Below, piece by piece: positions 33,647-64,000 of a stretch of 64,000 bases of DNA. The stretch is from an uncultured Gammaproteobacteria bacterium. GTDB taxonomy: Bacteria > Patescibacteriota > Patescibacteriia > UBA1558 > 2-01-FULL-52-15. Made by a program: the position numbers and the translations under genes. A model generated the notes under the pieces. The model ran no database searches, had not been told where the DNA came from, and was given only the letters and a program-made list of their open reading frames with translations. The stretch is taken from positions 160,079 to 224,078 of the forward strand of contig CAYOCJ010000001.1 in NCBI GenBank assembly GCA_964402565.1, given 5' to 3'. How positions within the stretch are numbered: the first letter of the stretch is position 1; every line of letters starts with the position of its first letter.

Positions 33647-33679
33647 CCCGGCATCCTATAACAATTAACAGCTCTACCT

Positions 33680-34045: not shown

Positions 34046-34059
34046 TCTGAATCGAGATC

Positions 34060-35127: not shown

Positions 35128-35144
35128 GCAGGGAACATCAATAC

Positions 35145-39779: not shown

Positions 39780-41992
39780 AATGCTGGTGTGGTTGTTGGA
39801 TGTGTGAGTGTCTTTGATTTTTCAATATAGTTGTCAGCAGAAGCAGTATCGCCGGCGTCACGATATGCATTTGCAATATCGATATAATCTTGTTGGGTAA
39901 TCTCATTTTCATCAGCAACGTCAAGATATTTTTTAAAAAATTCAATAGCACGATCATTGTAATCGAGCTGATAACTTACGCGTCCATATACCTGATAAAA
40001 TTCATTTGGAATTGGTGCGGGTAAAGCCGGAATTTGTTTGAGTACTTTTTCGGCCTCTGCATACCTGCCTAGGTTATGTAGTGCGATGCCTAAGCCGGTC
40101 ATATTTTGAGCATTTTTTTTGATCTGGATCGATTTTTTAAATTCATCTACAGCTTCTTGTTCTCTGCCGAGATCGATAAGGTCGGTGCCCAGGTTAGCAT
40201 GTGCGTCCATGTCGTCCGGCTGATACGATATGATGGAGCGCAGTATGGTTTCTGCCTGTCGACTATTCTCAACAGTTTTGCCTTCGCAGTTCATAAGCAA
40301 GTAGGCAAGCACCGAAAGACTGTACACTGGTTCTTTAATTTCCGAGAGGTTTCTTTGAATTTCCTTTTTGAGTGTTTGCTGATCGGCGTTGTTCTGACAA
40401 TATTTTTTATAACCGCGTACCTCCGTAGCAGGATTAAGTATAGTGTACTGATTCGTATCTATGATTGCATCATTGCCAACGCCTTGCTTCATCACCACTG
40501 CGCTGGAGCCATCAAAAAAAACTAGCTTCCAATCTTTGCGAGTGATAATAGCGCTGTACAGTCTTGAATTATTTGGAACAATTGCGAAGCCTATCAAGAA
40601 CTGGTTTATGGCAGCTCCGAGGACATTGGTGTCGCCCATATTGCGATAGTACCAATAGTAATCATTGTCGTAGACATTTGGCGTCCTGCCGTCAATGAAT
40701 ATCTTATATGCGGGGAACAGTTGCCAGGACAATTCGCTGCCATTGCCATAATCATTCAGGAGGTTACCTTTTGGCTTTTCGTTTAGTACAAATGCGATGC
40801 TTTCGTGCGCCATGCTCGCATACGCTGGTCCGGTATTGAGTGTAAAGTCGTGTGCCCCACTCGTATAAATGATGATAAACATTAAACCGAGCGCCGCTTG
40901 GAGATAGAGCAATGTTGATCCGTTCGTTTGAACCCGAGCAAATCTCACGATGATGAGTGCGGAGATAAGTATCAGCGTGATCAGATAGCGATTATACTCA
41001 TGCGCCATATAGAAGTAAAAAGAAAAGATAGTTACTTCCTCATAGGGAACATTTCTTAAAAATGCAAACGTAGTAATTTTGTTCGTCCACAGGACCTTCA
41101 TTTTTTTGAGTAAGACGCCAACGGCTATGAAAAGGTACAGAGGATGGGCCACCGATGCGTTGAGTGGGAATGTAAACATTGATGAAAAAGGAATTTTCGA
41201 CCATTCCTGGATATTTCGAAGGCTTTCCTGATCACTTAAAATTTGATGCGTCAGAATGTAAATATAGTATCCATACGGATTGGCTAATGACGCTAGGCAG
41301 GTGAGAACGAGAACGATGCCATAGGCTCTGACGTATTTGTTGAACTTAAAACTCTGTATGATGAAACAGCGATGACGTAACATCGTACGCCATAGTTCTG
41401 CGCCGAAAAAAAAGGCAATCAAAACGATACCCATGGTAAACGTGCCATGAGTATTTACCCAGATGACCTCAAGGATTGGTAATAGGTAGAGATATTTTTT
41501 GTGTTCGTATTTAAAACTATACAGACTGAACAGGAATATACCGATGAATAAATTTTGCATGATTTCGGGTCTGACTAGGTTTCGCGTTTGCGGTATGCAC
41601 AGTAAAAAAACAATCACAGCAAACAAGAGACCCTTTGTGCCCTGTTTGATAAGGCTCGCACGTATGAAGAAGAAATAGGTTGCTCCAAATACCAGAAATC
41701 TCAGAATAGTAAGCCCCGCGAAGGAGGTTTTGCTGAACAGAAGGTAGAGTAAACCGTCGAACAGCCACGTTCCATTTAGCCAAAGCTTTCCGGAAAAATG
41801 TTGAGAAAAAATATCATGGGTGAGAAATGATTTCGACGCCAGCATCCATTTTCCTAATGCAAGATGCCACCAAAAGTCATTGTAGGAGAACTGGCCGAAA
41901 CTTAGCAATGCGATTAGTATCACAAAAACTGCGACCGCTACGGCAGTCGCAGTTCGAGATGAGCCTAAGACATCAGTCAATCTTTTTTGCAT
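39776..41992 (-). CDS. Paralogous polytopic membrane + TPR protein (putative GT-C-type glycosyltransferase)
   Basis: Same architecture and conserved blocks (FGQFSYNDFWWHLALGKWM; NEYADGS/NDYGNGS; FIDGR) as 37584-39779. Overlaps it by 4 nt. Confidence 0.45.
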   Translation of the reverse strand: MQKRLTDVLGSSRTATAVAVAVFVILIALLSFGQFSYNDFWWHLALGKWMLASKSFLTHDIFSQHFSGKLWLNGTWLFDGLLYLLFSKTSFAGLTILRFLVFGATYFFFIRASLIKQGTKGLLFAVIVFLLCIPQTRNLVRPEIMQNLFIGIFLFSLYSFKYEHKKYLYLLPILEVIWVNTHGTFTMGIVLIAFFFGAELWRTMLRHRCFIIQSFKFNKYVRAYGIVLVLTCLASLANPYGYYIYILTHQILSDQESLRNIQEWSKIPFSSMFTFPLNASVAHPLYLFIAVGVLLKKMKVLWTNKITTFAFLRNVPYEEVTIFSFYFYMAHEYNRYLITLILISALIIVRFARVQTNGSTLLYLQAALGLMFIIIYTSGAHDFTLNTGPAYASMAHESIAFVLNEKPKGNLLNDYGNGSELSWQLFPAYKIFIDGRTPNVYDNDYYWYYRNMGDTNVLGAAINQFLIGFAIVPNNSRLYSAIITRKDWKLVFFDGSSAVVMKQGVGNDAIIDTNQYTILNPATEVRGYKKYCQNNADQQTLKKEIQRNLSEIKEPVYSLSVLAYLLMNCEGKTVENSRQAETILRSIISYQPDDMDAHANLGTDLIDLGREQEAVDEFKKSIQIKKNAQNMTGLGIALHNLGRYAEAEKVLKQIPALPAPIPNEFYQVYGRVSYQLDYNDRAIEFFKKYLDVADENEITQQDYIDIANAYRDAGDTASADNYIEKSKTLTHPTTTPAL

Positions 41993-44958: not shown

Positions 44959-45735
44959 ATGGAATATAGTGTCGTTTTTGTTTTTGGGCTGATAGTTGGC
45001 AGTTTTTTAAATGCGATCATTTATCGCCTTTCAGTAGGCCAGTCAGTGACCGCGGGGCGGTCATATTGTCCTGAGTGCAAGCATGTGCTGGCGCCGCGGG
45101 ACCTTGTGCCGGTACTGAGCTTCATGGTTTTGCGAGCCAAATGCCGGTATTGCCGTACGCCGATATCATGGCAATATCCGATCGTCGAGCTCGCAACCGC
45201 ATTCGCATTTGTGCTGGCGTATATGCAGATCGCGCCGAATGGCCTAATGCTCGGGGACAATGGTCTTCGCCTCATGCTGTATTGGATTTATGCAGCTTTT
45301 TTGATCGTGATCTTTGTCTATGACCTGAAACATTATTTGATTCTCGATGCGGTGATTATTCCTGCAGCTATCATTGCATTGATCGGCGGCATAGCCTTGC
45401 ATCAGCCGGTCTTGAGCATGTTGCTCGCGGGTATTGTCGCGGCAGGGTTTTTTGGCGTTCAGTTCTTTGTTTCGCGAGGCCGCTGGATCGGAGGCGGGGA
45501 TATACGTTTAGGTTTTCTCATGGGGCTTATCCTGTCCTGGCCGCATGTCGTCATCGCATTAATGCTGGCCTATGTGCTTGGCAGTTGCATCGGTATCGCT
45601 TTGATCCTTGCCGGCAAGAAAAAATTTGGAAGCCAGCTCCCTTTCGGCACTTTTCTTACTATAGCGACCTATATCGTGCTTTTGTACGGCGATCAGATCT
45701 TTAATTGGTATTGGAGTTTTACCTATGGCGCGTAG
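44959..45735 (+). CDS. pilD: Prepilin peptidase PilD (A24 family)
   Basis: N-terminal CPEC...CRYC zinc finger, GGGDIRLGFLMG block, 6-8 TM. Confidence 0.8.
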   Translation: MEYSVVFVFGLIVGSFLNAIIYRLSVGQSVTAGRSYCPECKHVLAPRDLVPVLSFMVLRAKCRYCRTPISWQYPIVELATAFAFVLAYMQIAPNGLMLGDNGLRLMLYWIYAAFLIVIFVYDLKHYLILDAVIIPAAIIALIGGIALHQPVLSMLLAGIVAAGFFGVQFFVSRGRWIGGGDIRLGFLMGLILSWPHVVIALMLAYVLGSCIGIALILAGKKKFGSQLPFGTFLTIATYIVLLYGDQIFNWYWSFTYGA

Positions 45736-46570
45736 AGGATACACCTTGGTTGAAATGATGATCTCGATCGGCATCCTGACGTTGCTCCTTGGCGTTGTCG
45801 GGTTTAATTATAATAGCAGCAAGAACTTCGAAACGATGAAATTAGAAATTCAGAGATTAGCCTCTGCTATCCGTTCTGCACGAAGCCGCGATTTTAATAG
45901 TACGGCAAAACTAGCCTGCTATGATGACATCTCTGCCGGGTCCGTGGTCCACGCATGCAATAAAAGTTCAGACTGCACGACAGGCAGCTGCACTATGAAT
46001 TATCCGTACTATGGGTATGGTGTGCATATCGAACAGGTCTATAAAGTATGCAGCGGCGATACTACTCGCTCATGCTATGACAACCTTGATTGCACCGGCG
46101 CACAAGGCACGTGTACTACAAATAATCCGCAAGGCAGAAGCAGTTACGTCGTTTTCGCTGATTTCACCAATCCAACCAACCCGCATTTTAACGGCGGAAA
46201 AACTGGCGGAGAATTTGTCGAAGAATTTATCATGCCGAAGGATTTCCGGCCTTACTTTTTCAAGACAACAAATGGCTGCAATGATTGGGATGCGGCTGAG
46301 GTCCTGTTTGACAGCGGTGCACTTTCATTGAAAGATCGCGTGTCCAATTCCTGGTCAAGTGTGGCGATCTCAAATGATGACGGCTCATCGAAAGCAAATC
46401 AGATCGGGCTCATACTTGAACTTTGGTATGCGCCAGGTGGCACCAGGACCGATAGCGTTCAGACGCGCAGGCAGCATGGACGCATCACTATCGACCAGCC
46501 TACGTTGAGTACTGATGATAAGCTGATGTCAAATACTACCCCTGCGCCATCTTTTGTAACCTGCGGATAA
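45725..46570 (+). CDS. Minor pilin / pseudopilin (prepilin-type N-terminal domain)
   Basis: MARRG/YTLVEMMISIGIL with Glu+5. Cys-rich globular domain. Confidence 0.6.
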   Translation: MARRGYTLVEMMISIGILTLLLGVVGFNYNSSKNFETMKLEIQRLASAIRSARSRDFNSTAKLACYDDISAGSVVHACNKSSDCTTGSCTMNYPYYGYGVHIEQVYKVCSGDTTRSCYDNLDCTGAQGTCTTNNPQGRSSYVVFADFTNPTNPHFNGGKTGGEFVEEFIMPKDFRPYFFKTTNGCNDWDAAEVLFDSGALSLKDRVSNSWSSVAISNDDGSSKANQIGLILELWYAPGGTRTDSVQTRRQHGRITIDQPTLSTDDKLMSNTTPAPSFVTCG

Positions 46571-46571
46571 T

Positions 46572-47375
46572 ATGTTGCAACGTTTTTTCATGAACATTCG
46601 GAAGCAGCGTCGACGAGTTGCTATTCGCGCGACGGGTTTTTTGAGGCGCAGAAACGGATTCACTCTCATCGAAGGAATTATTGCTCTCGGCATCATCAGT
46701 ACAACCTTAGTCGTCGGCTTATCGCTGGCAGTATCGAATCTGACTGCAAGCCAGGATAATAGCGACCGCGTTATAGCCGGCAACTTAGCCCGCGAAGGCA
46801 TTGATTTGGTCCGCCAGCAGCGCGATTCAAATTGGATCCGGCGCATTGCAGGCATTTCTCCGAATAATTGGGACAATGGAATGTCATTTGGTTATGTCGA
46901 TCCGCGCATCGTCTACCCGAGCGGTTTTTTCGTATTCCCCCCTACTAATGGCTATTTTCAGCTTGTACTGGCGCAGCCGGTGAATTCAACGCAATATGAC
47001 CTGTCGAGCTGCATGCAAAGTCCGAGCGATGGTAATTCGATCCAATGTCAGGTCCGGAAGGGCACGGTTAACGGTACCACCGTGTATCATCAATACACTT
47101 CGGCGATCGCGAATACATTGCCGACCAGATTTTTTCGACGGCTCGTCATAAAATCAATTTGCTGGAACAGCTCGTCAAGCGTTGAGTATGTGCATCAGAT
47201 AGCACCCGCTGATGGGCCGATCACCTGGGGCAATTGCACCGGCGCAGACACGAGGATCGGGGTTCTCGTTACATCGGAGGTCATGTGGAAACGGGGGAGC
47301 AAGACCATTGATGTAACATTGAAAGACCGCTTGTACAATTGGGATAATGGGTATGCGGCGCGGAATAGTTTCTAA
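46572..47375 (+). CDS. Minor pilin / pseudopilin
   Basis: RRNG/FTLIEGIIALGII with Glu+5. Confidence 0.6.
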   Translation: MLQRFFMNIRKQRRRVAIRATGFLRRRNGFTLIEGIIALGIISTTLVVGLSLAVSNLTASQDNSDRVIAGNLAREGIDLVRQQRDSNWIRRIAGISPNNWDNGMSFGYVDPRIVYPSGFFVFPPTNGYFQLVLAQPVNSTQYDLSSCMQSPSDGNSIQCQVRKGTVNGTTVYHQYTSAIANTLPTRFFRRLVIKSICWNSSSSVEYVHQIAPADGPITWGNCTGADTRIGVLVTSEVMWKRGSKTIDVTLKDRLYNWDNGYAARNSF

Positions 47376-47389
47376 ACATTGCAGAGCAT

Positions 47390-48046
47390 ATGAACACGTA
47401 CGCAAACAAATCTGATCAGAAATTCATGCGAGATCGCAGCACACGCGGATATACCATCGTCGAGATGATCATATCGATCGGCCTTTTCTCTCTGGCATTC
47501 GGCGCTATCTCAACGATCTTCATCGGCTTTACCAATACGCAGACGAAAGCCTCGACATCTCAGAAACTTCTGAACGAAGCAAATTATATACTGACATCGC
47601 TTGCTTCTGATATCAGATCTAGTTCCATCGATTATACTTCTACAGGCTGCGGCGTAAGCGCCGGATCTTCGAATATTCTTTGCCTGAAGTCGTTCGACGG
47701 CAAGTATATCCGTTATGAGTATGCGAATGATACGGTGCAGTCAGCAGGCACGGTGCTGAAGATTTGTAAAAGTTATAACGACAGCCTGTGTGCTCTCAGC
47801 GTTTTTAATACTTCAAACCCGGCACTTTCGCTGTGGGCGATCAAGAAATCTGCTTTCATGACGGTTTCCGGCTTGAATTTTTATATTTATCCGGCTGCAA
47901 ACCCGAATACCTCGAATTCAGGAAACACCGGGCCGGCAGTGCAGCCGAGCGTTACCATTTTATTGAAGGCTTCTGCCGGCACAGCCAAGTCTGCGCAGTC
48001 CTATGATCTTCAGACTACGGTAACGTCCCGTCAATATACGTATTAG
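47390..48046 (+). CDS. Minor pilin / pseudopilin
   Basis: STRG/YTIVEMIISIGLF with Glu+5. Confidence 0.6.
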   Translation: MNTYANKSDQKFMRDRSTRGYTIVEMIISIGLFSLAFGAISTIFIGFTNTQTKASTSQKLLNEANYILTSLASDIRSSSIDYTSTGCGVSAGSSNILCLKSFDGKYIRYEYANDTVQSAGTVLKICKSYNDSLCALSVFNTSNPALSLWAIKKSAFMTVSGLNFYIYPAANPNTSNSGNTGPAVQPSVTILLKASAGTAKSAQSYDLQTTVTSRQYTY

Positions 48047-48047
48047 T

Positions 48048-51814
<3,767 letters not shown>

Positions 51815-53605: not shown

Positions 53606-54358
53606 ATGGCACGGTCAATTGAAGAAAGGATTCAAAATACCATTCGGGCAAAAAAACGCCGTCGATGGTACACCCGATGGTGGGGCACAACCTTGATCGT
53701 TCTAGGGGTGCTCGTGGTGATCTGGTCCGTGGCTGTAGTCGTTCAGACCATTCATTATTATCGCGAGTATACCAAAGCCGGCGGCAGTAATTCGATCGCT
53801 GAGTTTGCTCAGACGCGCCAGGATACGAAAATCGACCTGCTTCATAATAGCGACGATCCAAGCGTAGGACCTAAAACAGCGCCGGTAACTATTGTCGCAT
53901 TCGAAGATTTTCAATGCCCGTATTGCTTTCAGGCACAGCCATTCCTGAAGAAATTGCTTGCGGCGCACCCCGGAGATGTACGGCTGATCTATAAGGATTT
54001 CCCTTTAAGCTCCATACACCCTGATGCTCAGGCAGCCGCTGAAGCTGCACAATGTGCGTTCCAGCAGGGTAAGTTCTGGGAGTATCATGATGAGCTTTTT
54101 GCCAATCAAAGCCGTTTTGCAGAGGCATTTTATAGGGCTACAGCAAAGAAGGTCGGGTTGAATATCAATACCTTCAACGAATGCCTGGCAACGGCAAAAA
54201 CGAAACAAAGTATCTCCCAGGATGTAGAACTAGGCAGGACCCTCGGCGTACTGGGGACTCCGACCTTTTTCATCAATGGCGAGTTATTCGCTCAAGGCTA
54301 TAGCCCGGAGATCGATTCTCAGTTCGAAAAGGCTATTGAGTACATCCGGTCTTTGTGA
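53606..54358 (+). CDS. DsbA-family thiol:disulfide oxidoreductase, membrane-anchored
   Basis: N-terminal TM. CxxC FQCPYC. Conserved LIYKDFPLSSIHPDAQ and GKFWEYHDELF. Confidence 0.7.
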   Translation: MARSIEERIQNTIRAKKRRRWYTRWWGTTLIVLGVLVVIWSVAVVVQTIHYYREYTKAGGSNSIAEFAQTRQDTKIDLLHNSDDPSVGPKTAPVTIVAFEDFQCPYCFQAQPFLKKLLAAHPGDVRLIYKDFPLSSIHPDAQAAAEAAQCAFQQGKFWEYHDELFANQSRFAEAFYRATAKKVGLNINTFNECLATAKTKQSISQDVELGRTLGVLGTPTFFINGELFAQGYSPEIDSQFEKAIEYIRSL

Positions 54359-54414
54359 TAGACTCTGTTTACTTTATTAACCTAGTGTATTAAACAATAA
54401 TTAATCTAAGTAGT

Positions 54415-55155
54415 ATGGATACTGAAAACATGACTCAACAGGGCAAAAAGAGCTTCATGATGGGGCTGATAACCGGTCTCGGCATTTGTATTGTCGTGGG
54501 CGGAGCATTTATGATGGGACGCTATGGCACACCAGGCGGATTAGGCGGCGGATCGAACCCTCCGGCAGCTCAACAGCCGACGGCACAGCAGCCGACACAG
54601 CCATCCGGACCTGAAGGCGATGCAACAAAGATTGCAGCAGTATCGAAGGACGACCATATTCGCGGTGATGCAAATGCACCGATCACCATGATCGAATACA
54701 GCGATTTTGAATGCCCATTCTGCTTGCGATTCCACGAAACTTTGACCCAGGTATTCGCTGATTATAAGGGCAAGGTCCGACTCGTATACCGACAATTCCC
54801 ATTACGATCTATCCACCCACAGGCTCAGAAAGCTGCTGAGGCATCTGAATGCGCTTCTGCTCAGGGTAAATTCTGGGAAATGCATGACAAGCTTTTCGAG
54901 CTTAACAAGGCTCAGAATCTGAACGTAGACTCTATGAAGACAGGCGCGAAGGACATTGGCCTCAATACGACCCAATTCAACACTTGTCTTGATAAAGGCC
55001 AAATGGTTGATACAGTTGAAAAGGATTATCAGGACGGCTTGGCTGGAGGCATCGCAGGCACGCCTGGCACCTTCGTCAATGGACAGTACCTGGCAGGAGC
55101 ATTGCCATACTCTGACGTAAAGACAATTCTCGACGGTATCCTCAACAAGAGCTAA
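54415..55155 (+). CDS. DsbA-family thiol:disulfide oxidoreductase, paralog 2
   Basis: TM. FECPFC. LVYRQFPLRSIHPQAQ and GKFWEMHDKLF. Confidence 0.7.
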   Translation: MDTENMTQQGKKSFMMGLITGLGICIVVGGAFMMGRYGTPGGLGGGSNPPAAQQPTAQQPTQPSGPEGDATKIAAVSKDDHIRGDANAPITMIEYSDFECPFCLRFHETLTQVFADYKGKVRLVYRQFPLRSIHPQAQKAAEASECASAQGKFWEMHDKLFELNKAQNLNVDSMKTGAKDIGLNTTQFNTCLDKGQMVDTVEKDYQDGLAGGIAGTPGTFVNGQYLAGALPYSDVKTILDGILNKS

Positions 55156-55185
55156 TTCTAACGTCTCTCTGAAAGAAAACCGATC

Positions 55186-55785
55186 ATGAAACGCATATTG
55201 GCACTTGCGTTGCTCGGGATCATCGTGACCGGATGCACGCCGAAGTATGATGATCCGAAGCCGGAACGCGCAACCAAAGGAAGCCCTCAGGCACAAGTAA
55301 CGGTAGAGGAATTTGCTGACTATCAATGTCCAGCCTGTGGTAGTGCGCATCCGATGATCAAAAAATTGATGGAGAAGTACGGAAACCGTGTTTTGTGGAA
55401 ATTCATCAATTATCCATTGACCTCTATCCACCCATACGCATTCAATGCGGCACTCGCTGCTGAATGCGCCAACGACCAAGGTAAGTTCTGGGAATACCAC
55501 GACAAGCTTTTTGAGAACCAGGCGAACCTCGGGAAGAGCAGTCTCTATACATATGCCGGGGATCTCGGTATGAATGTTGATACCTTCAAAGCATGTGTGC
55601 AGTCACGCGCGAAGTCCTCGCTGGTGCAGCAAGATATGGCCTTGGGCGACAGCCGCAAAGTCGATCAGACGCCAACTCTTTTCATCAATGGAGAAATGTT
55701 GACGAACTGGACTACTCTTGAATCTAAACTGGATACATTTTTCCCGGATCTGCCTGACGTTGCCACGACAACCCCAGCTAATTAA
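55186..55785 (+). CDS. DsbA-family thiol:disulfide oxidoreductase lipoprotein, paralog 3
   Basis: Lipobox IVTGC. YQCPACG. INYPLTSIHPYAF and GKFWEYHDKLF. Confidence 0.7.
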   Translation: MKRILALALLGIIVTGCTPKYDDPKPERATKGSPQAQVTVEEFADYQCPACGSAHPMIKKLMEKYGNRVLWKFINYPLTSIHPYAFNAALAAECANDQGKFWEYHDKLFENQANLGKSSLYTYAGDLGMNVDTFKACVQSRAKSSLVQQDMALGDSRKVDQTPTLFINGEMLTNWTTLESKLDTFFPDLPDVATTTPAN

Positions 55786-55799
55786 GTGATTTCATCGCC

Positions 55800-56603
55800 A
55801 TGCCGGACGCATACTGGTTTGGTTCATATGCACCGGATCGTACCCTTCTTGATCTTCAGTTTCTCCATATTTATTGGTACAGCGTCCTGGTGACGCTCGG
55901 GATCGCTCTTGCAGTCCTCATTGCCCGTAAACAATACATTCGGAATAAAGGCAAAGAGCAGGACATGCTTGATCTCGCATTTTACGTCGTGCTCGGCGGA
56001 CTCCTGGGAGCGCGCGTATGGCATGTGTTCATCTTTCAATGGAGCTACTACTCTCAACATCTCATTGAAATTCCGAAAATTTGGGAAGGCGGCATAGCGA
56101 TACAAGGCGCTTTGCTGGGTGGCCTCGCGACCGCATTTTTCTATTGCCGCAAGAAAAAACTCGATCTTATTGCCTTGGCTGACAGCGGCGTTGTCGGCAT
56201 TCCCTTAGCGCAGGCGATCGGCCGCTGGGGGAATTTTTTTAACCAAGAGCTTTATGGCCTCCCCTCCAAATTGCCGTGGGCGATCTATATAGAGCCGCAG
56301 AATCGAGTATCGGGGTTCGAACGTTTTTCCCATTTTCACCCCACATTCCTGTATGAATCCATACTCGATGCGCTCTTGTTCGTTTTGCTTCTCAAACTTT
56401 CGAAGAAAAAACTCAAACCCGGGGTTCTCGCGGCGTGGTATTTCATCGGCTATAGCGCTATTCGGTTCATCGTCGATTTTGTACGCATCGATCCGATGTT
56501 AATGATCGGTTTTCTGCGGGCCTCACAGGTATTAAGCATCATGTTCATAGGCGCGGCTTCATATTTCTTGTATGCAATGAAAGCCCGCAGAGTTGCCAAG
56601 TAG
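55800..56603 (+). CDS. lgt: Prolipoprotein diacylglyceryl transferase
   Basis: Lgt signature IGRWGNFFNQELYG. 7 TM. Confidence 0.85.
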   Translation: MPDAYWFGSYAPDRTLLDLQFLHIYWYSVLVTLGIALAVLIARKQYIRNKGKEQDMLDLAFYVVLGGLLGARVWHVFIFQWSYYSQHLIEIPKIWEGGIAIQGALLGGLATAFFYCRKKKLDLIALADSGVVGIPLAQAIGRWGNFFNQELYGLPSKLPWAIYIEPQNRVSGFERFSHFHPTFLYESILDALLFVLLLKLSKKKLKPGVLAAWYFIGYSAIRFIVDFVRIDPMLMIGFLRASQVLSIMFIGAASYFLYAMKARRVAK

Positions 56604-56637: not shown

Positions 56638-56714
56638 GGGGTGGTAGTTCAGTTGGCTAGAACGCTTCCCTGTCACGGAAGAGGTCGCGGGTTCGAGTCC
56701 CGTCCATCCCGCCA
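56638..56714 (+). tRNA. tRNA-Asp (anticodon GTC)
   Basis: GGGGTGGTAGTTCAGTTGGCTAGAACGCTTCCCTGTCACGGAAGAGGTCGCGGGTTCGAGTCCCGTCCATCCCGCCA. Confidence 0.85.
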
Positions 56715-56728
56715 GAATTGAATAGTGA

Positions 56729-56753
56729 TAAACCGCCGCTGTGGCGGTTTTTG
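56729..56753 (+). terminator. Rho-independent terminator after tRNA-Asp
   Basis: AAACCGCCGCTGTGGCGGTTTTT. Confidence 0.6.
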
Positions 56754-56795
56754 TGCTATACTTATTATTCGTTTACCGGAAAATTAAGCAAAATA

Positions 56796-58579
56796 TGATG
56801 AAGGAGAAGGGAAGCTATGCGTTTGTCAGGCAAACGCTAAAGATTTTTTGGCAACATGCGATTCGTTACCATTGGCAGGTAGCCGCTCTTTTATTTGGGA
56901 TCATCGTGGTGACCGCGGTCCAAACTTATATCCCGGTGCTCTATAGCGATCTCATAAATGTTGCTTCACTCGGCGCGTCGCCAGATACTGTGCACAAGGC
57001 TTTTGTTATCGTGTTCATGATTTTGATCGTGAATACTGCGCGTACTGCAACGTGGCGTTCGACGAACTTCATCAATAATTATTTCCAGCCGAAGGTGATG
57101 AGCGATCTCATGAATACCTGCTATCAGTATCTGCAGCAACATTCCCTTGGCTACTTCAATTCTAACTTCGTCGGAAGTTTGGTCACGAAGGTACGTCGGT
57201 ATGAACGGGCATTCGAATTGATCGCTGATCAGATAACCTTTGACCTGGGGCGCTCATTGCTCGATACTGGAGCGATCCTGACGGTACTGTTGTGGAACTA
57301 TCGCACCCTTGGCTTGATCGTGCTCGGTTGGTGTATCTTGTTTTTGGTCTTTTCATATGCATACTCGATCTACAAGCTACCTTATGATATCAAGCGAGCA
57401 GCTGCCGATACGCAAACGACCGCGCAACTGGCTGATAGTATAACGAATAACATTAATATCAAACTTTTTGCCAGTTACAAAGAAGAGAATGATCGTTTTT
57501 CCGACATTACACGTGAACAGTTTTTGATGCGGAAAAAAAGCTGGGACCTGTCGACATGGGGAGACGTTGTACAGGGTATTATGATGATACTTCTCGAGTT
57601 TCTGATCTTCTATCTTGCCATAGCTAAGTGGCAGCAGGGCACTTTGAATGTAGGAGATCTGGCGCTACTTCAGATGTTTTTGCTGCGTATTTTCGATAAA
57701 CTTTGGAATACCGGCAAGAACATTCGCAGCATCTATGAAGCCCTTGCGGACGCTAATGAAATGACCGAGATACTCTTGAATCCGCATGAAGTCCAGGATG
57801 TGCTGCATGCAGCACAGTTGCAAGTTAAGAACGGCGGTATCGAGTTTAAGGATGTTTCGTTCGTCTATCAGAATGGTGTCGAAGTCTATAAGCACTTTAA
57901 CCTGCGTATTGCACCAGGCGAGCACGTTGCCTTTATCGGCCCTTCTGGCGGCGGCAAGTCCACGATCGCGAAACTACTCTTCAGGTTCTATAATTTGAAT
58001 GGCGGTTCGATCAGCATCGATGGCCAAAATATCGATGCAGTCACACAGGATTCTCTGCGCTCGGCATTCGCGTTTGTGCCGCAGGAGCCGATACTTTTCC
58101 ATAGGACTCTTATGGAGAATATTCGCTACGCAAAGCCCGATGCTACGGACGAACAGGTCATCGAAGCAGCGAAGCTTGCTCATGCGCATGAATTCATTGC
58201 TTCTTTTCCTCAGCAGTATGACACGATGGTCGGTGAGCGCGGGATCAAACTTTCAGGAGGCGAACGTCAGCGCGTCGCGATCGCTCGCGCTATCTTGAAA
58301 GATGCGAAGATATTGGTATTGGATGAAGCGACATCATCTCTCGATAGCGAGAGTGAAATGTATATTCAGGATGCTCTGAAAAAATTAATGCATAATAAAA
58401 CGACGGTCGTCATTGCCCATCGCCTCTCAACGATCATGCAGATGGACAGGATCGTTGTCATTGATGACGGCGAAGTCATCGAGGAAGGGAAGCATCAAGA
58501 GCTTCTGAAAGCAAACCAAGGAATGTATCAAAAACTGTGGGGGATACAAGCAGGAAGCTTCGATGTTCAGGAAGGTTAG
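56796..58579 (+). CDS. ABC exporter, fused permease-ATPase (MsbA/type I exporter family)
   Basis: 6 TM then an NBD with GPSGGGKST, LSGGERQRVAIARA, LVLDEATS. Start chosen after the terminator. Confidence 0.8.
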
Positions 58580-58635
58580 TGTTCGGTTTTCTCTCTTTTT
58601 GGTATACTGCTTAGAGAATCATTAAGAAACTCACT

Positions 58636-59340
58636 ATGAATAAGACAACGATCAGTGTCGCAGTTGCGGTCATTCTTTTGCTAGGCGGAGGCTATATGGT
58701 CTACCAAGGGTCCAATGGTCCAAAAAAGGAGACCCCGAAGCAAGATACCAATACAGCTCAGGATACAGGGCAGTCAAAGCGATCATGGAAAAGTATTTTA
58801 GCAGACGGCAAGAGCGTCAAATGCACGTATACGCAAACGGTCGCCTCTGGCACTCAGAATGGCACTATGTATATAGCAAATGGCCACATGCGCGGTGATA
58901 TTATGATGTCCACCGCAAGTTCCGGAAACTATACCATGCATATGCTGAACGATGGGCAATGGAATTATACCTGGGGAGGGCCTATCGGCGAGTCGCAGGG
59001 CGTGAAAATGAAAATGATGTCAGAAACAAATGTGCATACGCAGGCGAATGCGCAGCAGGGAGTCGACCTGAATGAGCAGCTCGATGTGAATTGTTCGCCA
59101 TGGAGCGAAGATTCTTCTGAATTTGTAGTGCCGGCAGATATTCAATTCAGAGACCTTTCAGCAGGTACTATGATGAATGTCAATGTGAACAGCATGATGA
59201 ATACCAGTACGTCCGGTTCGGCATCAGCGAACGTGAACGCCAATGTGAAGGTGAAGGCTAAAGTAGACTGCTCGGTCTGCAATCAAGCGCCGGAAGGCAT
59301 GTCACGCGTACAGTGCATGCAGGCACTCGGCTGTTCATAG
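58636..59340 (+). CDS. Hypothetical secreted protein with Cys-rich C-terminus
   Basis: N-terminal TM/signal. C-terminal CSVCNQAPEGMSRVQCMQALGC. Confidence 0.35.
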   Translation: MNKTTISVAVAVILLLGGGYMVYQGSNGPKKETPKQDTNTAQDTGQSKRSWKSILADGKSVKCTYTQTVASGTQNGTMYIANGHMRGDIMMSTASSGNYTMHMLNDGQWNYTWGGPIGESQGVKMKMMSETNVHTQANAQQGVDLNEQLDVNCSPWSEDSSEFVVPADIQFRDLSAGTMMNVNVNSMMNTSTSGSASANVNANVKVKAKVDCSVCNQAPEGMSRVQCMQALGCS

Positions 59341-59353
59341 TAATGGTATCTTT

Positions 59354-59388
59354 AAAAAAAGAGCTCCCGAATGGGAGCTCTTTTTTGT
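59354..59388. terminator. Bidirectional terminator between convergent genes
   Basis: AAAAAAAGAGCTCCCGAATGGGAGCTCTTTTTT. Confidence 0.65.
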
Positions 59389-59396
59389 AGCACTGC

Positions 59397-59933
59397 TTAC
59401 GGATATACGGTCAGCATCGCCACATTGTATTGCATCGTATCTGCGGTCTGGCAGTTAACAGTGAATGTTTGAACTTTCTTTACCTGAGGCAGGTGTATCA
59501 AGACGAATGCATATCCGTCCAGGACAATTTTCCGATTATTGAGATAGACATATTGCGTATCGGGAGACGCGCCCTCTATCATCAATTCAGAACCGCTGGT
59601 ATAGGTACCGCCGACAAGCGGGGTAGTTACTGCACAGTTGTCGAATTGCAGACGTTTCGCGGAGTAATTTGCGACCGCTAACTGATAGGTATCAGGCTGT
59701 TTTTGGCTGAATGCCAGCACTGTCCGGCTAGACCCTGAAATTTTTTGACCGGTATTGCTTCCTGAGATATCAGCAGGCATCATCTCATTCTGAGATTGGG
59801 CAGGGGCCTGTACGAAATAGGCAGGACTTGGTTGATTCGACTTGAAATGCGATTTCACCATTAAGCCTGCCTGGATCGCGGCCGGAACTAAAATCGCTAT
59901 AAGGATTGCTTTTTTGAACGGACTCATACGCAT
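59397..59933 (-). CDS. Hypothetical secreted protein
   Basis: Signal peptide MRMSPFKKAILIAILVPAAIQAG. Confidence 0.35.
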   Translation of the reverse strand: MRMSPFKKAILIAILVPAAIQAGLMVKSHFKSNQPSPAYFVQAPAQSQNEMMPADISGSNTGQKISGSSRTVLAFSQKQPDTYQLAVANYSAKRLQFDNCAVTTPLVGGTYTSGSELMIEGASPDTQYVYLNNRKIVLDGYAFVLIHLPQVKKVQTFTVNCQTADTMQYNVAMLTVYP

Positions 59934-60051
59934 AATCGTGCAGATTAATTATTATGAGATTACCTGTACATAGTTGACGTCTGTTTCTCGTGTTTCTTAC
60001 GAATATAATATGTACATAAAGAATCAGGACCTGCCGGTATGACAGGTCCTG

Positions 60052-60540
60052 TTAGAACTTACGGAGATGAAACTTTTCAAAGTTGACGACTAACGTGATG
60101 CTTGCGCCCTTACTGGTCACTTGCAGCGCCCAGAGATGGTCGATTTTTGAATGGCGATTGAGCGGGAAAACGACAATAGAGCGCGAAAGCAGCTTGGTCT
60201 TGGTTGTGTCCGTCAGCCCGAATGAAGTGGTTGCATTGTTTTCAGTCGGGAATGGTGAAGGCAGCTTGATGTCCTCATGGCTTCGGTATGCACGTGCAGC
60301 GCCGCCTAGCCAGTATGCGAAGGTCAGCGTTTTGAACCACCGCTTCCCTTTGAATGCACGAATGCGGACCACATTCTCGAACTCGTACTGGATCTTGAAA
60401 TCATTTGAAGCATCAGATTTTTGCGGTGTGAAGGTCGCCAGACAATCAAGAAACGTCATGCCCTGACATGGTCGTTCACGTTCGTCTGCGTGACCTACCG
60501 AAGACACGCAGAGCACTATGAGTATTAGTACCCATCGTTT
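60052..60540 (-). CDS. Hypothetical secreted protein (shortened from the tracked ORF)
   Basis: The tracked ORF 60052-60801 overlaps the flavodoxin gene. A signal-peptide-like KRWVLILIVLCVSSVGHA follows an in-frame GTG at 60540. Confidence 0.3.
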   Translation of the reverse strand, partial: KRWVLILIVLCVSSVGHADERERPCQGMTFLDCLATFTPQKSDASNDFKIQYEFENVVRIRAFKGKRWFKTLTFAYWLGGAARAYRSHEDIKLPSPFPTENNATTSFGLTDTTKTKLLSRSIVVFPLNRHSKIDHLWALQVTSKGASITLVVNFEKFHLRKF

Positions 60541-60635
60541 CACTGTGCATCTCCTTTCTCGTAATGAACAACGACCGAATAGCATACTGTATTGCTTGTA
60601 TGTACGCAAGACCAGCAGAATGATATACTGGAGCC

Positions 60636-61112
60636 ATGCATGTACTCGTTGTCTATGGCACGAATTCAGGTGGCACCAAGGAGGTGGCAGAACTTGTCGC
60701 GCTTGATTTTGCAAAAGCAGGACATTCGGTATCCATGAAAAGCGCAGAATATACCGTACCTGCTGATTTAGATGGATATGACTGCGTGGTCCTCGGTTCA
60801 TGCACGTGGGAGAAGATCTTGCCTACGAAGCGATTCGAGGGGCAATTGCAGCAGCATATGGGCGCGTTGCGGGATAAACTTAAGGGCGTTGATCTATCAG
60901 GTAAAAAATTGGCAATTTTTGGCCTGGGCGATTCTAGCTATACCAATTTTTGCATCGCCGCAACTCATCTGGAAGTGCTCGTGAAAGAATCGAAAGCAAC
61001 GCAAGTAGGGCCTACATTGCGCGTGGACAGTTATTTTTTTGATCAGGAAGCAAATCGAAAGCGCATCAAGGACTGGGCCGATCAATTGCTTGCCGCATTA
61101 AAAGCCGCCTAA
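60636..61112 (+). CDS. Flavodoxin (short-chain)
   Basis: VLVVYGTNSGGTKEVAE FMN phosphate-binding loop. 158 aa. Confidence 0.7.
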   Translation: MHVLVVYGTNSGGTKEVAELVALDFAKAGHSVSMKSAEYTVPADLDGYDCVVLGSCTWEKILPTKRFEGQLQQHMGALRDKLKGVDLSGKKLAIFGLGDSSYTNFCIAATHLEVLVKESKATQVGPTLRVDSYFFDQEANRKRIKDWADQLLAALKAA

Positions 61113-61134
61113 ACAATACAATAGGGACGGTCGC

Positions 61135-61158
61135 GAGCCTGCATTGCGGGCTTTTTTA
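61135..61158 (+). terminator. Putative weak terminator after flavodoxin
   Basis: GCCTGCATTGCGGGC stem (one G-U) plus T6. Confidence 0.3.
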
Positions 61159-61283
61159 TATAGTCATAACGTGTCTAAATGGAACGCGGTAGGCTTGACA
61201 TTATTTGTAATATGTGAGATATTGTTCCGTCGTGTTTATTAATGGCTTAGCCATATTTAGCCCAAGAGTTAGCGAAAAGTTAG

Positions 61284-64000
61284 ATGGATAATCAAAGATC
61301 AATTTCAATCATAGTTCCTGCCCTCAATGAGGCTGGTAATATACCCCAGCTGGTTCAGCGTATTCATGACACGCTGACCGTTGCTCAGATCAGGTATGAA
61401 ATCATTCTGATCGACGACCATTCGACCGATGAGACTGTTTCAGTTGCTGAAAAATTTTCAACTTTTTATCCGGTCGTATGCTACTTGAAGCAAGGATTCC
61501 GCGGTAAAGCATATTCATTGATCGAAGGATTCGGTTATGCGAAGTACCCGCTACTCGCAATACTCGATGCTGATCTGCAGTATCCGCCAGAGGCTTTGCC
61601 GGGCATGATACAAAAAATAGTCGGCGGTGCGGATGTGGTCGTTGCAAACCGCGTTTCGCGTGATGAATCGATCTTGCGCACCGTGATCAGTCGGTCTTTC
61701 AATTTCGTTTTCGCCCGTCTGTTGCATGGATTGAATTGCGATGTGCAGTCTGGTATGAAAGTTTTCAGGAAAGAGATCCTCCGGGATGTCACGCTGAATC
61801 CGACGCCGTGGACTTTCGACATGGAATTTTTGATCGAGGCGCGCCAGCGTGCCTATACGATCGACACCGTGGTGATCCCATTTGCAGAGCGCTTAGAAGG
61901 GCAGTCGAAGATCAATATTTTCCGCGCAAGCTATGAGATCGGTTCGAATGCATTGCAATTGAAATTTAAACGCCGCAAACCGCGCCATACTGCGCCCATT
62001 CAGGACGCGTCAATGATAGGCGCGGGTGTGAAGCATAAAGGCAAGCATTTCATAACCCATTCGACATTGCATCACAGCTATTCTGCGATTGAAACATTCG
62101 CGCCATGGCAGCAGCGTTTTAGCATCGCGGCAATAGCGTTATTCGTTATTGGGATTGTTTTTGCACCGTTGGGCACAACTCAATTCGTGATCGCAGTATT
62201 AAGCGTTATTTATTTTATAGACGTCGTTTTTAATTTATTTTTGGTTCGCCGGAGCCTCCATACACCGCCGGAAATTCATTATACCGATGAAGAGCTGAGA
62301 CAAATCGATATCTCTTCACTGCCGGTCTACAGCATCTTGTGCCCGCTCTACAAAGAAGCGCATATTCTGCCCGGCTTCTTGGATGCAATTGCAAAACTTG
62401 ACTGGCCAAAAGAAAAACTGGATGTGCTGTTGCTGCTCGAAGAGAATGATCCTGATACGATTGCCGCTGCACACAGCATGGCCTTGCCCGAGTATGTGCG
62501 CGTTGTGGTCGTGCCGCATTCAATGCCGAAGACAAAACCGAAGGCATGCAATTACGGATTATCGATGGCCCGCGGTGAGTATCTGGTCGTCTATGATGCT
62601 GAAGATATTCCAGATCCGCTGCAGCTCAAGAAAGCTTATTTAGGCTTCCAGAATGTCGGACCTGAAGTGAAGTGCTTGCAGGCTAAGCTGAACTATTTTA
62701 ATCCTCGTCAAAATCTATTGACCAGATTGTTCACTGCAGAGTATTCCCTTTGGTTCGACGTTATATTGACTGGTCTTCAATCGCTCAACACTTATATTCC
62801 GCTCGGAGGAACCAGCAACCACTTTAGAACGAATGACCTGCGTAATCTTGCTGGCTGGGACCCATTCAATGTTACTGAGGATTGTGACCTTGGCATCAGG
62901 CTTTTCAAAGTTGGCTATAAAACGGCTGTCATCGATTCAACGACCCTTGAGGAAGCGAACAGCGATTTCAAAAATTGGCTCCGCCAGCGTTCACGCTGGA
63001 TCAAAGGCTATATGCAGACCTACCTCGTGCATATGCGGCGGCCGGTCCAGTTCAGCAAGGAGAGTAAGCATCATTCGCTTATTTTCCAGCTTGTCGTTGG
63101 CGGCAAAATAGCTTTCGCGCTGATTAATCCTATCCTATGGATAACCACCATCCTGTATTTTACCTTCCGGTCAATTATTGGTCCGTCGATCGAAGCGTTA
63201 TACCCGCCATTTGTTTTCACCATGGCAGGCATGTCGCTTATTTTCGGAAATTTCCTTTGCTTGTACTACTACATGGTCGGCTGTGCGAAACGCGAACAAT
63301 GGGGTTTGATAAAATACGTCTACCTTGTGCCTTTGTACTGGCTCGCGACAAGTATCGCTGCCTATATCGCGCTCTATGAGCTGATCGTTAAACCGCATTA
63401 CTGGCAAAAAACGAATCATGGCCTGCAAAAGGCGCAGCCGGTATTGGCGAACGGAGCTCCTGTGCTAGCTGTGCCGCGCAGATCACTCAGGGCATCAGTG
63501 GTTCGCCTGATCCCTGCCCGATTGCGCGAGCAGGTAGGCACGTCCGGAGGAATGCTTATCTCCGTGATGATGATCTCCAATTTTATCAACCTCTTATTCA
63601 ATGCCTATTTGGGCAGAGAGCTGAATTTTGAAGATTTCGGCGTATTAACCTTGGTGAATACCTTATGGTATTTAGGGTCGGTATTCATTAACGGCGTTAC
63701 CTCTACCATCAATGAACAGACTGCATTTCTCGTAGCGAAGGGTGATACGGCGTCATCAAATCGCTTATTGCACGGCGTTCGATCGAAAGTCATCATCATT
63801 GCTCTAGCCGTGTCTGTGGTATGGGTATTCGCAGTGAGAAGCGTTGCTGCCTTTTTCAATATCGCTGACTCGGAGTCGTTGTTCCTCTTCACGCCGTTGT
63901 TTACCGTCGGCCTCCTTGCCGCAACGAACCGCGGCTATCTGAACGGAACATTCGCGTTCCGTTCGCTTTCCCGCATCATGTTGATCGAAACCATTAGCAA
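61284..64000 (+). CDS. Partial fused glycan synthase (runs off the 3' end): DPM1-like GT2, then a TM segment, then a processive synthase-type GT2 (DxD, TED, QRSRW), then 4 TM, then a Wzx/MOP-flippase-like domain
   Basis: Manual translation shows no stop in this frame from the ATG at 61284 to the window end (more than 905 codons). Domain 1: IVPALNEAGNI...LIDDHSTDET...LDADLQYPPE. Domain 2: DAEDIP, NVTEDCDLGIRL, QRSRW. C-terminal LGRELNFEDFGVLTLVNTLWYLG resembles the Polysacc_synt N-terminus. Confidence 0.7.
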   Translation, partial: MDNQRSISIIVPALNEAGNIPQLVQRIHDTLTVAQIRYEIILIDDHSTDETVSVAEKFSTFYPVVCYLKQGFRGKAYSLIEGFGYAKYPLLAILDADLQYPPEALPGMIQKIVGGADVVVANRVSRDESILRTVISRSFNFVFARLLHGLNCDVQSGMKVFRKEILRDVTLNPTPWTFDMEFLIEARQRAYTIDTVVIPFAERLEGQSKINIFRASYEIGSNALQLKFKRRKPRHTAPIQDASMIGAGVKHKGKHFITHSTLHHSYSAIETFAPWQQRFSIAAIALFVIGIVFAPLGTTQFVIAVLSVIYFIDVVFNLFLVRRSLHTPPEIHYTDEELRQIDISSLPVYSILCPLYKEAHILPGFLDAIAKLDWPKEKLDVLLLLEENDPDTIAAAHSMALPEYVRVVVVPHSMPKTKPKACNYGLSMARGEYLVVYDAEDIPDPLQLKKAYLGFQNVGPEVKCLQAKLNYFNPRQNLLTRLFTAEYSLWFDVILTGLQSLNTYIPLGGTSNHFRTNDLRNLAGWDPFNVTEDCDLGIRLFKVGYKTAVIDSTTLEEANSDFKNWLRQRSRWIKGYMQTYLVHMRRPVQFSKESKHHSLIFQLVVGGKIAFALINPILWITTILYFTFRSIIGPSIEALYPPFVFTMAGMSLIFGNFLCLYYYMVGCAKREQWGLIKYVYLVPLYWLATSIAAYIALYELIVKPHYWQKTNHGLQKAQPVLANGAPVLAVPRRSLRASVVRLIPARLREQVGTSGGMLISVMMISNFINLLFNAYLGRELNFEDFGVLTLVNTLWYLGSVFINGVTSTINEQTAFLVAKGDTASSNRLLHGVRSKVIIIALAVSVVWVFAVRSVAAFFNIADSESLFLFTPLFTVGLLAATNRGYLNGTFAFRSLSRIMLIETIS

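Follow-up and report, generated by a model that had tools for sequence, protein, structure and literature searches.

Three-component glycosylation systems, among them GtrB/GtrA/Gtr*, ArnC/ArnEF/ArnT, CsbB/GtcA/YfhO and a variant with a MATE flippase (PMC11127046), combine a family 2 glycosyltransferase (GT2) resembling dolichol-phosphate mannose synthase (DPMS), which loads polyprenyl phosphate with a sugar, with a flippase and a GT-C glycosyltransferase, to which the flipped product serves as donor on the outer side of the membrane. In the MATE variant, a MATE-family (MOP) flippase has been assigned to a system built on a polyprenyl-phosphate sugar and a GT-C enzyme; the same authors point out that no direct demonstration of flippase activity exists for such proteins (Kelly et al. 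2024, PMC11127046). Processive synthases such as BcsA, hyaluronan synthase (HAS), chitin synthase, PgaC and NfrB are organised differently, around a membrane GT2 that carries D,D,D, TED and QxxRW motifs in a GT-A domain flanked by transmembrane (TM) helices, with interfacial helices alongside; NfrB, a characterised GT2 of the BcsA-like kind, also has an MshEN domain (PMC8669472). Here we describe a gene that encodes parts of both kinds in a single chain. It starts at position 61284 on the plus strand of the 64,000-nucleotide stretch of DNA that we analysed (the window; positions 160,079 to 224,078 of contig CAYOCJ010000001.1, assembly GCA_964402565.1) and runs off the end of the window at position 64000. 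This open reading frame (ORF) covers the 5' portion of the gene that heads a probable operon for cell-envelope glycans in Patescibacteria, or Candidate Phyla Radiation (CPR), and the complete 1545-residue protein consists of a DPMS-like GT2 (module 1), a BcsA-like membrane GT2 (module 2), a MOP transporter (module 3) and a family 4 glycosyltransferase, GT4 (module 4).

The locus shares a DPMS-like GT2, a flippase and GT-C proteins with the three-component systems, but here the synthase and the flippase share one chain with a BcsA-like GT2 and a GT4, the operon encodes two GT-C candidates, and a GtrA-type domain, which Clostridial relatives possess, is absent. The MATE-flippase system provides a precedent for a MOP-superfamily module in this role (PMC11127046). 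Module 2 has the motifs, the TM-flanked GT-A domain and the interfacial helices of the processive synthases, yet it has fewer TM helices (two plus two or three), its CPR form lacks PilZ, MshEN and BcsB, and it is fused at its N-terminal side to a DPMS-like GT2 and, in Chloroflexota, at its C-terminal side to a GT-C. Module 3 has the 12-TM, two-half fold of Wzx/WzxE, MurJ and MATE, with both termini inside (N-in/C-in), but it is embedded between the enzymes of a larger protein and lacks the two extra helices of MurJ. The operons also bring together, with PIG-L in some loci, the enzyme classes of glycosylphosphatidylinositol (GPI) anchor assembly and of the mycobacterial assembly of phosphatidylinositol mannosides (PIM), lipomannan (LM) and lipoarabinomannan (LAM). 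That set comprises a PIG-A or PimA GT4, PIG-L, a flippase, DPM1 or Ppm1, and GT-C mannosyltransferases; the likeness is one of logic only, and we know of no counterpart of the BcsA-like GT2 in those pathways. All four modules come from known superfamilies, and their logic is like that of three-component and synthase-dependent systems. The protein is a useful Rosetta stone for pairing flippases with substrates and for the biology of the CPR envelope, but on present evidence we see no new principle.

Our reading is that the protein and its operon form a composite machine, in which a synthase-type GT2 is coupled to the cytoplasmic and flipping steps of polyprenyl-phosphate-dependent extracytoplasmic glycosylation, and we give this a probability of roughly 0.55. 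The membrane GT2 would polymerise a beta-linked glycan from nucleotide sugar at the membrane and pass it outward, while the DPMS-like GT2 would charge polyprenyl phosphate with a sugar, the GT4 would build or extend a second lipid-linked glycan at the inner leaflet, and the MOP module would flip the lipid-linked sugar or sugars. Outside the membrane, a GT39/PMT_2-like protein of 558 residues and a weaker GT-C candidate of 511 residues would use the flipped lipid-linked donors, decorating or lengthening either the polymer or some other acceptor in the envelope. Fusion of the modules may provide 1:1 stoichiometry and substrate channelling in very small genomes.

The open frame is real, and very unlikely to be an assembly product. 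Translation gives 905 stop-free codons in window 61284-64000 (+), in agreement with the uninterrupted frame of the original prediction. An in-frame TAG lies directly 5' of the ATG, at 61281-61283, so ATG 61284 is the first possible start, and the start sites of homologues agree with it (consensus MxxxxxxSIVIPTLNE). The sole reason why a list of ORFs made for the window had nothing on the plus strand here is that this frame runs off the window. Followed into the source genome, the 4638-nt gene extends 1921 nt past the window end and its protein ends at 1545 residues, so that the window holds the first 905 of 1545 codons (59%). A 100%-identical protein of 1545 residues (P0001) has been deposited twice, on a 633-kb NCBI contig and in the Logan assembly of run SRR12313480. 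One could still suppose that a frameshift, a lost stop or a chimeric assembly has merged separate GT2, GT2, flippase and GT4 genes, and split forms of the same modules do occur in other genomes, with stop codons that come and go at the junctions. Yet window 56689-64000 shows no base difference in 7312 from the independently assembled Logan contig, 106 homologues from many independent samples and lineages share a length of about 1550 residues and the module order, and the junction regions are themselves conserved. We therefore reject an assembly artefact, on the identical assemblies and the 106 homologues of the same length, and regard such an explanation as close to refuted.

Conservation among homologues was measured over the 106 full-length proteins (at least 1500 residues) found among the 120 best database matches, which are 50-70% identical to the window's 905 residues. 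Their source names are all Patescibacteria lineages (Moran-, Woese-, Levy- and Parcubacteria, and others), barring a few entries labelled only 'bacterium' and one labelled 'Candidatus Fimivivens', and their public names are never more specific than 'glycosyltransferase'. Saccharibacteria are represented by a full-length locus, L026. There are at least 596 loci among GTDB species genomes. The architecture, at first judged very unusual, is so when set against the literature, since we did not find it described in the open-access papers on CPR, Saccharibacteria and Clostridia that we searched; among Patescibacteria genomes, however, it is common. As a separate observation, many close homologues (in loci L002-L005, L008 and others) come from one automated third-party-annotation series of metagenome-assembled genomes labelled 'uncultured Gammaproteobacteria' or 'Bdellovibrionales'; these labels clash with the Patescibacteria names of the relatives, look unreliable and were not used.

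Module 1 (residues 1-240; 61284-62003, +) is a DPMS/ArnC/GtrB-like GT2 and a candidate polyprenyl-phosphate sugar synthase. Residues 8-169 match PF00535 (E 3e-41), and residues 5-214 match the sequences of Pyrococcus dolichol-phosphate mannose synthase (5mlz, 1e-24), ArnC (8vxh, 7e-17) and GtrB (5ekp, 1.3e-13) in the PDB. D45, D95, D97, D153, R203 and K209 are invariant or nearly so, the pair D95-x-D97 of the DxD motif (D95-A-D97; 61566-61574, +) being invariant. A Pfam search did not find PF04138, the GtrA/DPMS TM domain, in the 1545-residue protein, whereas the unfused Clostridial counterparts of module 1 carry it (7e-18). The two TM helices that follow module 1 are also present in free-standing homologues of the membrane GT2.

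These helices (residues 274-293 and 295-326) lie in a conserved junction, residues 241-329 (62004-62270, +), which opens with a beta-hairpin motif, SMxGAGxxHxxxRFITH, with strands at residues 248-257 in the AlphaFold2 (AF2) model. M244, G246, G248, T258 and H259 are invariant, and free-standing module 2 homologues align from about residue 240-276 onward; the junction belongs to the N-terminus of module 2. The catalytic domain that follows (residues 330-585; 62271-63038, +) is that of a BcsA/HAS/chitin-synthase-type membrane GT2. It matches PF13641 (residues 349-575) and PF13632 (residues 434-647), and its motifs D438-A-E-D441 (62595-62606, +), T531-E-D533 (62874-62882, +) and Q568-R-S-R-W572 (62985-62999, +) are invariant in the full-length homologues. 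Module 2, which spans residues ~270-745, is the most conserved part of the protein, with a per-column identity of 0.73-0.85. In the AF2 model of residues 240-745 (pLDDT 85.5) the GT-A domain sits between TM helices, with interfacial helices, as in solved synthases, and Foldseek matches it to BcsA (9b8v_E, 5.7e-15, TMq 0.58-0.62), HAS (7sp7, 1e-13) and Chs1 (1.6e-9) in alignments of 445-520 columns that include the TM helices.

Three hydrophobic helices follow the catalytic domain, at residues 596-627, 642-669 and 673-702 (63039-63389, +). Averaged over the 106 homologues, the number of K+R per loop is 2.7 for residues 584-595, 0.4 for residues 628-641 and 1.1 for residues 670-672. This distribution suggests that the first two helices span the membrane, and because of it we read the third as probably interfacial and not membrane-spanning. 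Beyond it, residues 703-753 (63390-63542, +) hold an invariant W707-x-K709-T710-x-H712-G713 motif, which may resemble the gating-loop motif FxVTxK of BcsA, and a linker rich in K and R. The length of the linker varies among homologues (26% gaps over residues 701-750), and its mean of 9.8 K+R points to a cytoplasmic location.

Module 3 occupies residues 754-1166, of which the window encodes residues 754-905 (63543-64000, +), the first four and a half of 12 TM helices. Neither the window's C-terminal 205-283 residues nor the full MOP segment gave a Pfam match, even at E 10, and a profile of 28 homologous MOP segments gave only a chance match to PDB sequences. The assignment is therefore taken from structure prediction and from the Pfam matches of homologues. 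The AF2 model (pLDDT 87.3, pTM 0.87) has 12 long helices in two six-helix halves, and all 50 of its 50 best PDB matches are MOP transporters (MATE, WzxE and MurJ; TM-scores 0.60-0.76), with TM-scores of 0.72 to WzxE (9g95) and 0.74 to MurJ (6nc9); on structure alone the Wzx, MurJ and MATE subfamilies cannot be told apart. Among the 28 homologous segments (28-40% identical), PF01943 is matched in four (2.7e-7), PF13440 in three (8.3e-12) and MatE in two (3.9e-7). Polar residues within the helices are conserved, D977 and K1001 being invariant and E902 and H1120 nearly so. Mean K+R in the loops is 4.1 for M6/7, 2.0 for M10/11 and 1.2 for M8/9, against 0-0.1 for M1/2, M5/6, M7/8 and M9/10, an alternation that is the expected pattern for a 12-TM N-in/C-in topology and that would place the GT4 in the cytoplasm. 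The GT4 itself lies beyond the window on the same strand (residues 1195-1519), with matches to PF13439 (residues 1195-1356, 1e-17) and PF00534 (residues 1364-1519, 4e-44) and an invariant EX7E pair, E1453/E1461. Its best PDB sequence matches include PimB' (3oka, 1e-18) and PimA, and it matches MshA and BshA-type enzymes about as well. By the invariant motifs (DAD, DAED, TED, QRSRW and EX7E) and the conserved polar residues of the MOP helices, every module looks functional.

All three of the original domain calls hold up against these searches. The N-terminal ~230 residues had been called a DPM1/GtrB-like GT2, in keeping with the PF00535 and PDB sequence matches, and residues ~330-640 a synthase-type GT2 on the DAED, TED and QRSRW motifs, which prove to be invariant and to lie in a PF13641/PF13632 domain of BcsA/HAS fold. 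The final ~170 residues had been assigned to the N-terminus of a MOP/Wzx flippase, and the MOP fold (pLDDT 87) and the PST and MatE matches of homologous segments agree with this. Domain searches thus support the two GT2s by Pfam, and the flippase by structure and homologues and not by a Pfam match of its own. The four TM helices said to follow the synthase domain are uncertain, the AF2 model having three long hydrophobic helices and some short ones, the last probably interfacial.

In 80 fetched loci, for which module order and splits were compared, the four modules keep their order, and splits occur at any of the three junctions. Besides the fusion of all four modules, there are GT2-GT2 proteins whose MOP and GT4 partners have genes of their own, GT2-MOP-GT4 proteins preceded by a DPMS-like GT2 gene, GT2-GT2-MOP proteins with the GT4 encoded apart, and GT2-GT2-GT4 proteins that lack a MOP module. 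Minimal loci have only the DPMS-like GT2, the membrane GT2 and a GT-C (L029, L031, L034, L041, L052 and L053). Proteins in which the membrane GT2 leads straight into the GT4, with no MOP module (loci L023, L024, L028 and L042; proteins P0083, P0087 and P0088), mean that the C-terminus of the membrane GT2 must be cytoplasmic, and a one-chain topology with all catalytic domains in the cytoplasm appears feasible. An exhaustive profile search with the MOP module yielded 1430 representative clusters at E <= 1e-30. Among the best 150 representatives, whose architectures were read, the MOP module stands alone in 91, is fused to a GT4 in 38 and is part of all four modules in nine; the remainder are membrane GT2-MOP-GT4 (five), MOP followed by a GT2 domain (four) and others (three). 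MOP-GT4 is thus the commonest fusion of this MOP family among these representatives. From these fusion and fission counts, the four-module protein is best seen as a join of two older units, one of DPMS-like GT2 with membrane GT2 and the other of MOP with GT4.

The 1545-residue gene leads an operon in which the downstream genes have overlapping stops and starts. They encode a 979-residue protein with kinase, GT2 and GT4 domains, a PIG-L deacetylase and a pair of soluble GT2s. Two further products, of 511 and 558 residues, are polytopic membrane proteins, neither of which has a Pfam match above the gathering score, and another, of 430 residues, bears a signal peptide as well as a CarboxypepD_reg domain. 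The 558-residue protein has at least nine predicted TM helices. The query itself matches no model, but about 40% of its listed homologues carry PF13231 and one carries PF02366, their NCBI names are GT39, Clostridial and Thermogemmatispora homologues match PMT_2 (3.9e-5 and 5e-6), and D53 of a YGDAES motif after TM1 is invariant in the family; from these matches the protein is a GT39/PMT_2-like GT-C. The 511-residue protein is probably a GT-C too, as its family matches NF047440 (1e-9), three of 31 members match PMT_2, one member weakly matches a TMEM260-like O-mannosyltransferase model, and hhalign relates it to the 558-residue family (E 6.6e-5, probability 64%). PDB sequence searches with the 558- and 511-residue proteins, and with family profiles of the 430- and 558-residue proteins, returned nothing useful.

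Co-occurrence was counted over 51 loci with enough flanking DNA, the counts and p-values ignoring the phylogenetic relatedness of the loci. The 511-residue protein is found in 24/25 loci that have the GT4 and in 1/26 that do not. For the 558-residue protein, which is adjacent to the membrane GT2 in 38 of the 51 loci, the corresponding figures are 25/25 and 13/26 for the GT4, 23/24 and 15/27 for the DPMS-like GT2, and 20/20 and 18/31 for the MOP module. PIG-L occurs in 10/25 loci with the GT4 and in 0/26 without it. This pattern ties the DPMS-like module and the flippase to the downstream GT-C proteins, and not to the synthase's own substrate supply. A single chain that makes a lipid-linked donor, polymerises it and flips it, as first proposed, is therefore too simple as a sequence of steps, given the co-occurrence with GT-C proteins, while the three domain calls behind it stand and the GT4 is added as a fourth module. 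From the fusion to the GT4 and the co-occurrence with GT-C proteins we infer that the MOP module may flip a lipid-linked glycan. A classical Wzx/Wzy pathway was considered and set aside, as no phosphoglycosyl transferase or Wzy-type polymerase is present among the operon genes examined and the initiator class is of the monophosphate-forming DPMS type.

Relatives outside CPR show the membrane GT2 in other company. On its own (residues ~270-720, ~48-50% identical) it is found in Chloroflexota, Actinomycetota and Bacillota. In Thermogemmatispora (locus L079, 9824-13216) it is fused to a PMT_2-type GT-C in a Pfam-verified protein of 1130 residues, and three further Chloroflexota loci (L055-L057) apparently have the same fusion, judging by ORF coordinates only; we did not find such a synthase/GT-C fusion described in the literature searched. 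The cultured Clostridium drakei has, in order, a ManC-like pyrophosphorylase, a PMT_2 GT-C, a GT2 with a GtrA/DPMS TM domain, a membrane GT2 with an MshEN N-terminus, and BcsB, and Desulforamulus has, at a minimum, the membrane GT2 and a DPMS-like GT2 that bears a GtrA-type domain. The ManC-like gene of the C. drakei cluster hints at GDP-mannose as the nucleotide sugar. BcsB and MshEN typify exopolysaccharide synthases controlled by cyclic di-GMP (c-di-GMP), such as BcsA and NfrB (PMC8669472), and their presence in the C. drakei cluster indirectly supports processive polymerisation and export by module 2. A GT2-GtrA and a GT-C together make up the classical set of a three-component glycosylation system (PMC11127046).

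Several observations weigh against the composite machine. QxxRW is also found in non-processive GT2 enzymes. With two membrane helices before its catalytic domain and two or three after it, module 2 has fewer than the channels of BcsA or HAS, which makes polymer translocation by module 2 alone doubtful, and the CPR loci contain neither BcsB nor a c-di-GMP domain. Curated models place neither GT2 within a defined function: module 2 scores 103.1 bits against a cut-off of 422.3 for PgaC_IcaA and 63.9 against 699.1 for CelA, and module 1 scores 80.6 against 529 for ArnC, 74.8 against 325 for AglJ and 71.1 against 500 for PgfS. With these equivalog cut-offs unreached, the sugar specificity of module 1 cannot be assigned. 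The GT-C status of the 511-residue protein comes from moderate evidence (the hhalign probability of 64%), the co-occurrence counts carry the limit already given, and seven of the 25 GT4-containing loci have no nearby MOP module.

Other readings account for part of the same evidence. The operons might assemble a lipoglycan resembling GPI or PIM with no free polymer at all: the GT4 would glycosylate a membrane lipid at the inner leaflet, PIG-L would de-N-acetylate it where present, the MOP module would flip it and the GT-C enzymes would extend it outside with DPMS-made polyprenyl-phosphate sugar, the membrane GT2 being a lipid glycosyltransferase of limited processivity and not a polysaccharide synthase. 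A GT4, PIG-L, a flippase, a DPM1-like GT2 and GT-Cs are indeed the enzyme set of GPI-anchor and mycobacterial PIM/LM synthesis. The confinement of PIG-L to GT4-containing loci, the PimB' and PimA matches of the GT4, the prevalence of MOP-GT4 among fusions of this MOP family, and a membrane GT2 with few TM helices, whose L079 homologue shows some GT21-type similarity, all favour this. However, most loci lack PIG-L, and the GT4 matches MshA/BshA-type enzymes equally, so a lipid acceptor is not indicated. The membrane GT2, moreover, is the most conserved module and has polymer synthases as its nearest structures, and its Clostridial orthologue adjoins BcsB and has MshEN, as exopolysaccharide synthases do. 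We consider this lipoglycan route unlikely, though it is the best placed of the alternatives.

The fusions could also be taken as consecutive steps of a lipid-primed synthase, in which the DPMS-like GT2 makes a polyprenyl-phosphate sugar as primer, the membrane GT2 lengthens and exports the carrier-bound chain, and the GT39-like protein ligates the whole chain to peptidoglycan, protein or lipid. DPMS-GT2 fusions in CPR and GT2-GT-C fusions in Chloroflexota would correspond to such steps, the minimal loci hold just these three parts, and some O antigens are elongated synthase-style on a lipid carrier and then ligated. But GT39/PMT/ArnT-type enzymes are known to move single sugars from monophosphate carriers and not polymers, the GtrA-type domain of the Clostridial DPMS-like GT2 points to export of a small lipid-monosaccharide donor, and the MOP-GT4 unit and the second GT-C would be left unexplained; we find this route doubtful. 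Less probable again is protein O-glycosylation, with the GT39/PMT-like partners modifying secreted proteins, pilins or S-layer proteins from DPMS-made polyprenyl-phosphate sugar while the other modules build a glycan. It would suit the PMT/PMT_2 matches of the 558-residue family, the TMEM260-like member of the 511-residue family, the score of the DPMS-like module on the archaeal AglJ model (7e-21, under its cut-off) and the abundance of pilus and secreted-protein genes in the window. Against it, the GT39-like protein is linked most tightly, by fusion and by adjacency, to the synthase-like GT2 and not to any candidate protein substrate, and the PMT_2 model is broad, taking in GT-C enzymes of the ArnT-like kind that act on lipids and glycans.

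A further-reaching form of the composite machine can be put forward only tentatively, as it seems to us rather unlikely. The protein would then be the central envelope-glycan factory of Patescibacteria, with MOP-GT4 as a dedicated flippase for a lipid-linked glycan or glycolipid made by the GT4, and with synthase-dependent and lipid-carrier-dependent pathways merged in one machine. If this is true, such merged assembly would be a mode of glycan synthesis so far undescribed, and the MOP-GT4 fusion would be a Rosetta-stone identification of the flippase for a step analogous to one in the GPI and mycobacterial PIM/LM pathways, where to our knowledge the carrier has still to be identified.

A terminator-like hairpin and a promoter match 5' of the gene suggest that a separate transcription unit begins with it. 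The hairpin (61135-61153, +), an 8-pair stem followed by the T-run TTTTATATAG, is 3' of an upstream flavodoxin gene (60636-61112) and would mark the 5' boundary of the unit. The sigma-70-like promoter candidate (61195-61223, +; TTGACA-17-GATATT, with TG before the -10 hexamer) lies 61 nt upstream of the start codon; it is a consensus match only (10/12), and shuffled sequence yields 1.4 such sites per region.

At the other end of the gene, beyond the window, the 979-residue protein (L001 9220-12159) overlaps the stop of the 1545-residue gene. It combines an APH/choline-kinase-like domain with a GT2 and a GT4, is found in only two other loci (L010 and L043), and could be a sugar kinase for salvage. 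The secreted 430-residue protein (P0251; L001 17959-19233) is a conserved partner whose family accompanies the operon in at least 26 of the 80 loci, and in some genomes a homologue is fused to the GT39-like protein in products of ~940 residues. Its N-terminal domain of ~320 residues has no Pfam or PDB sequence match, and more than 100 homologues are annotated only for the C-terminal CarboxypepD_reg domain. E160, E162, N163, D231 and E259 are invariant in this N-terminal domain; a glycoside-hydrolase role, considered because of the invariant acidic residues, could not be supported.

Elsewhere in the window, a further sugar-enzyme fusion, of 520 residues (16744-18306, +), joins an NDP-sugar epimerase/dehydratase (PF16363/PF01370, residues 9-309) to a weak GT4 N-terminal-like domain (residues 338-468). 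Type IV pilus genes lie at 31895-36356 (+), with a PilB-type ATPase carrying an MshEN domain and a PilC-type platform protein, and at 44959-49808 (+), with a prepilin peptidase and then four ORFs, the first with an N-methylation motif. Two overlapping proteins of ~735 residues (37584-39779 and 39776-41992, -) have C-terminal TPR repeats and otherwise no Pfam match, and three tandem DsbA-like thioredoxin-fold proteins are followed by the prolipoprotein diacylglyceryl transferase Lgt at 53606-56603 (+).

In the literature that we searched we found no description of one chain that unites two GT2s with a MOP transporter and a GT4, of its widespread conservation among Patescibacteria, or of a link between a BcsA-like GT2 and GT-C transferases. 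The fusions and fissions suggest pairings of the GT39-like protein with the DPMS-like GT2 and with the synthase-like GT2, and of the second GT-C candidate with the GT4 and the MOP module. As a natural fusion of a flippase to the enzyme that presumably makes its substrate, the protein would be a good structural object for the handover of lipid-linked sugars to MOP flippases, while the chemistry should be more accessible through the related gene sets of cultured Clostridium and Desulforamulus, every part of which is unfused in C. drakei. For Patescibacteria themselves, this is a gene family that is conserved across many CPR lineages and heads a conserved operon, in organisms with tiny genomes that live attached to other microbes, whose surface glycans are likely to be central to that life and whose envelope chemistry is barely known.

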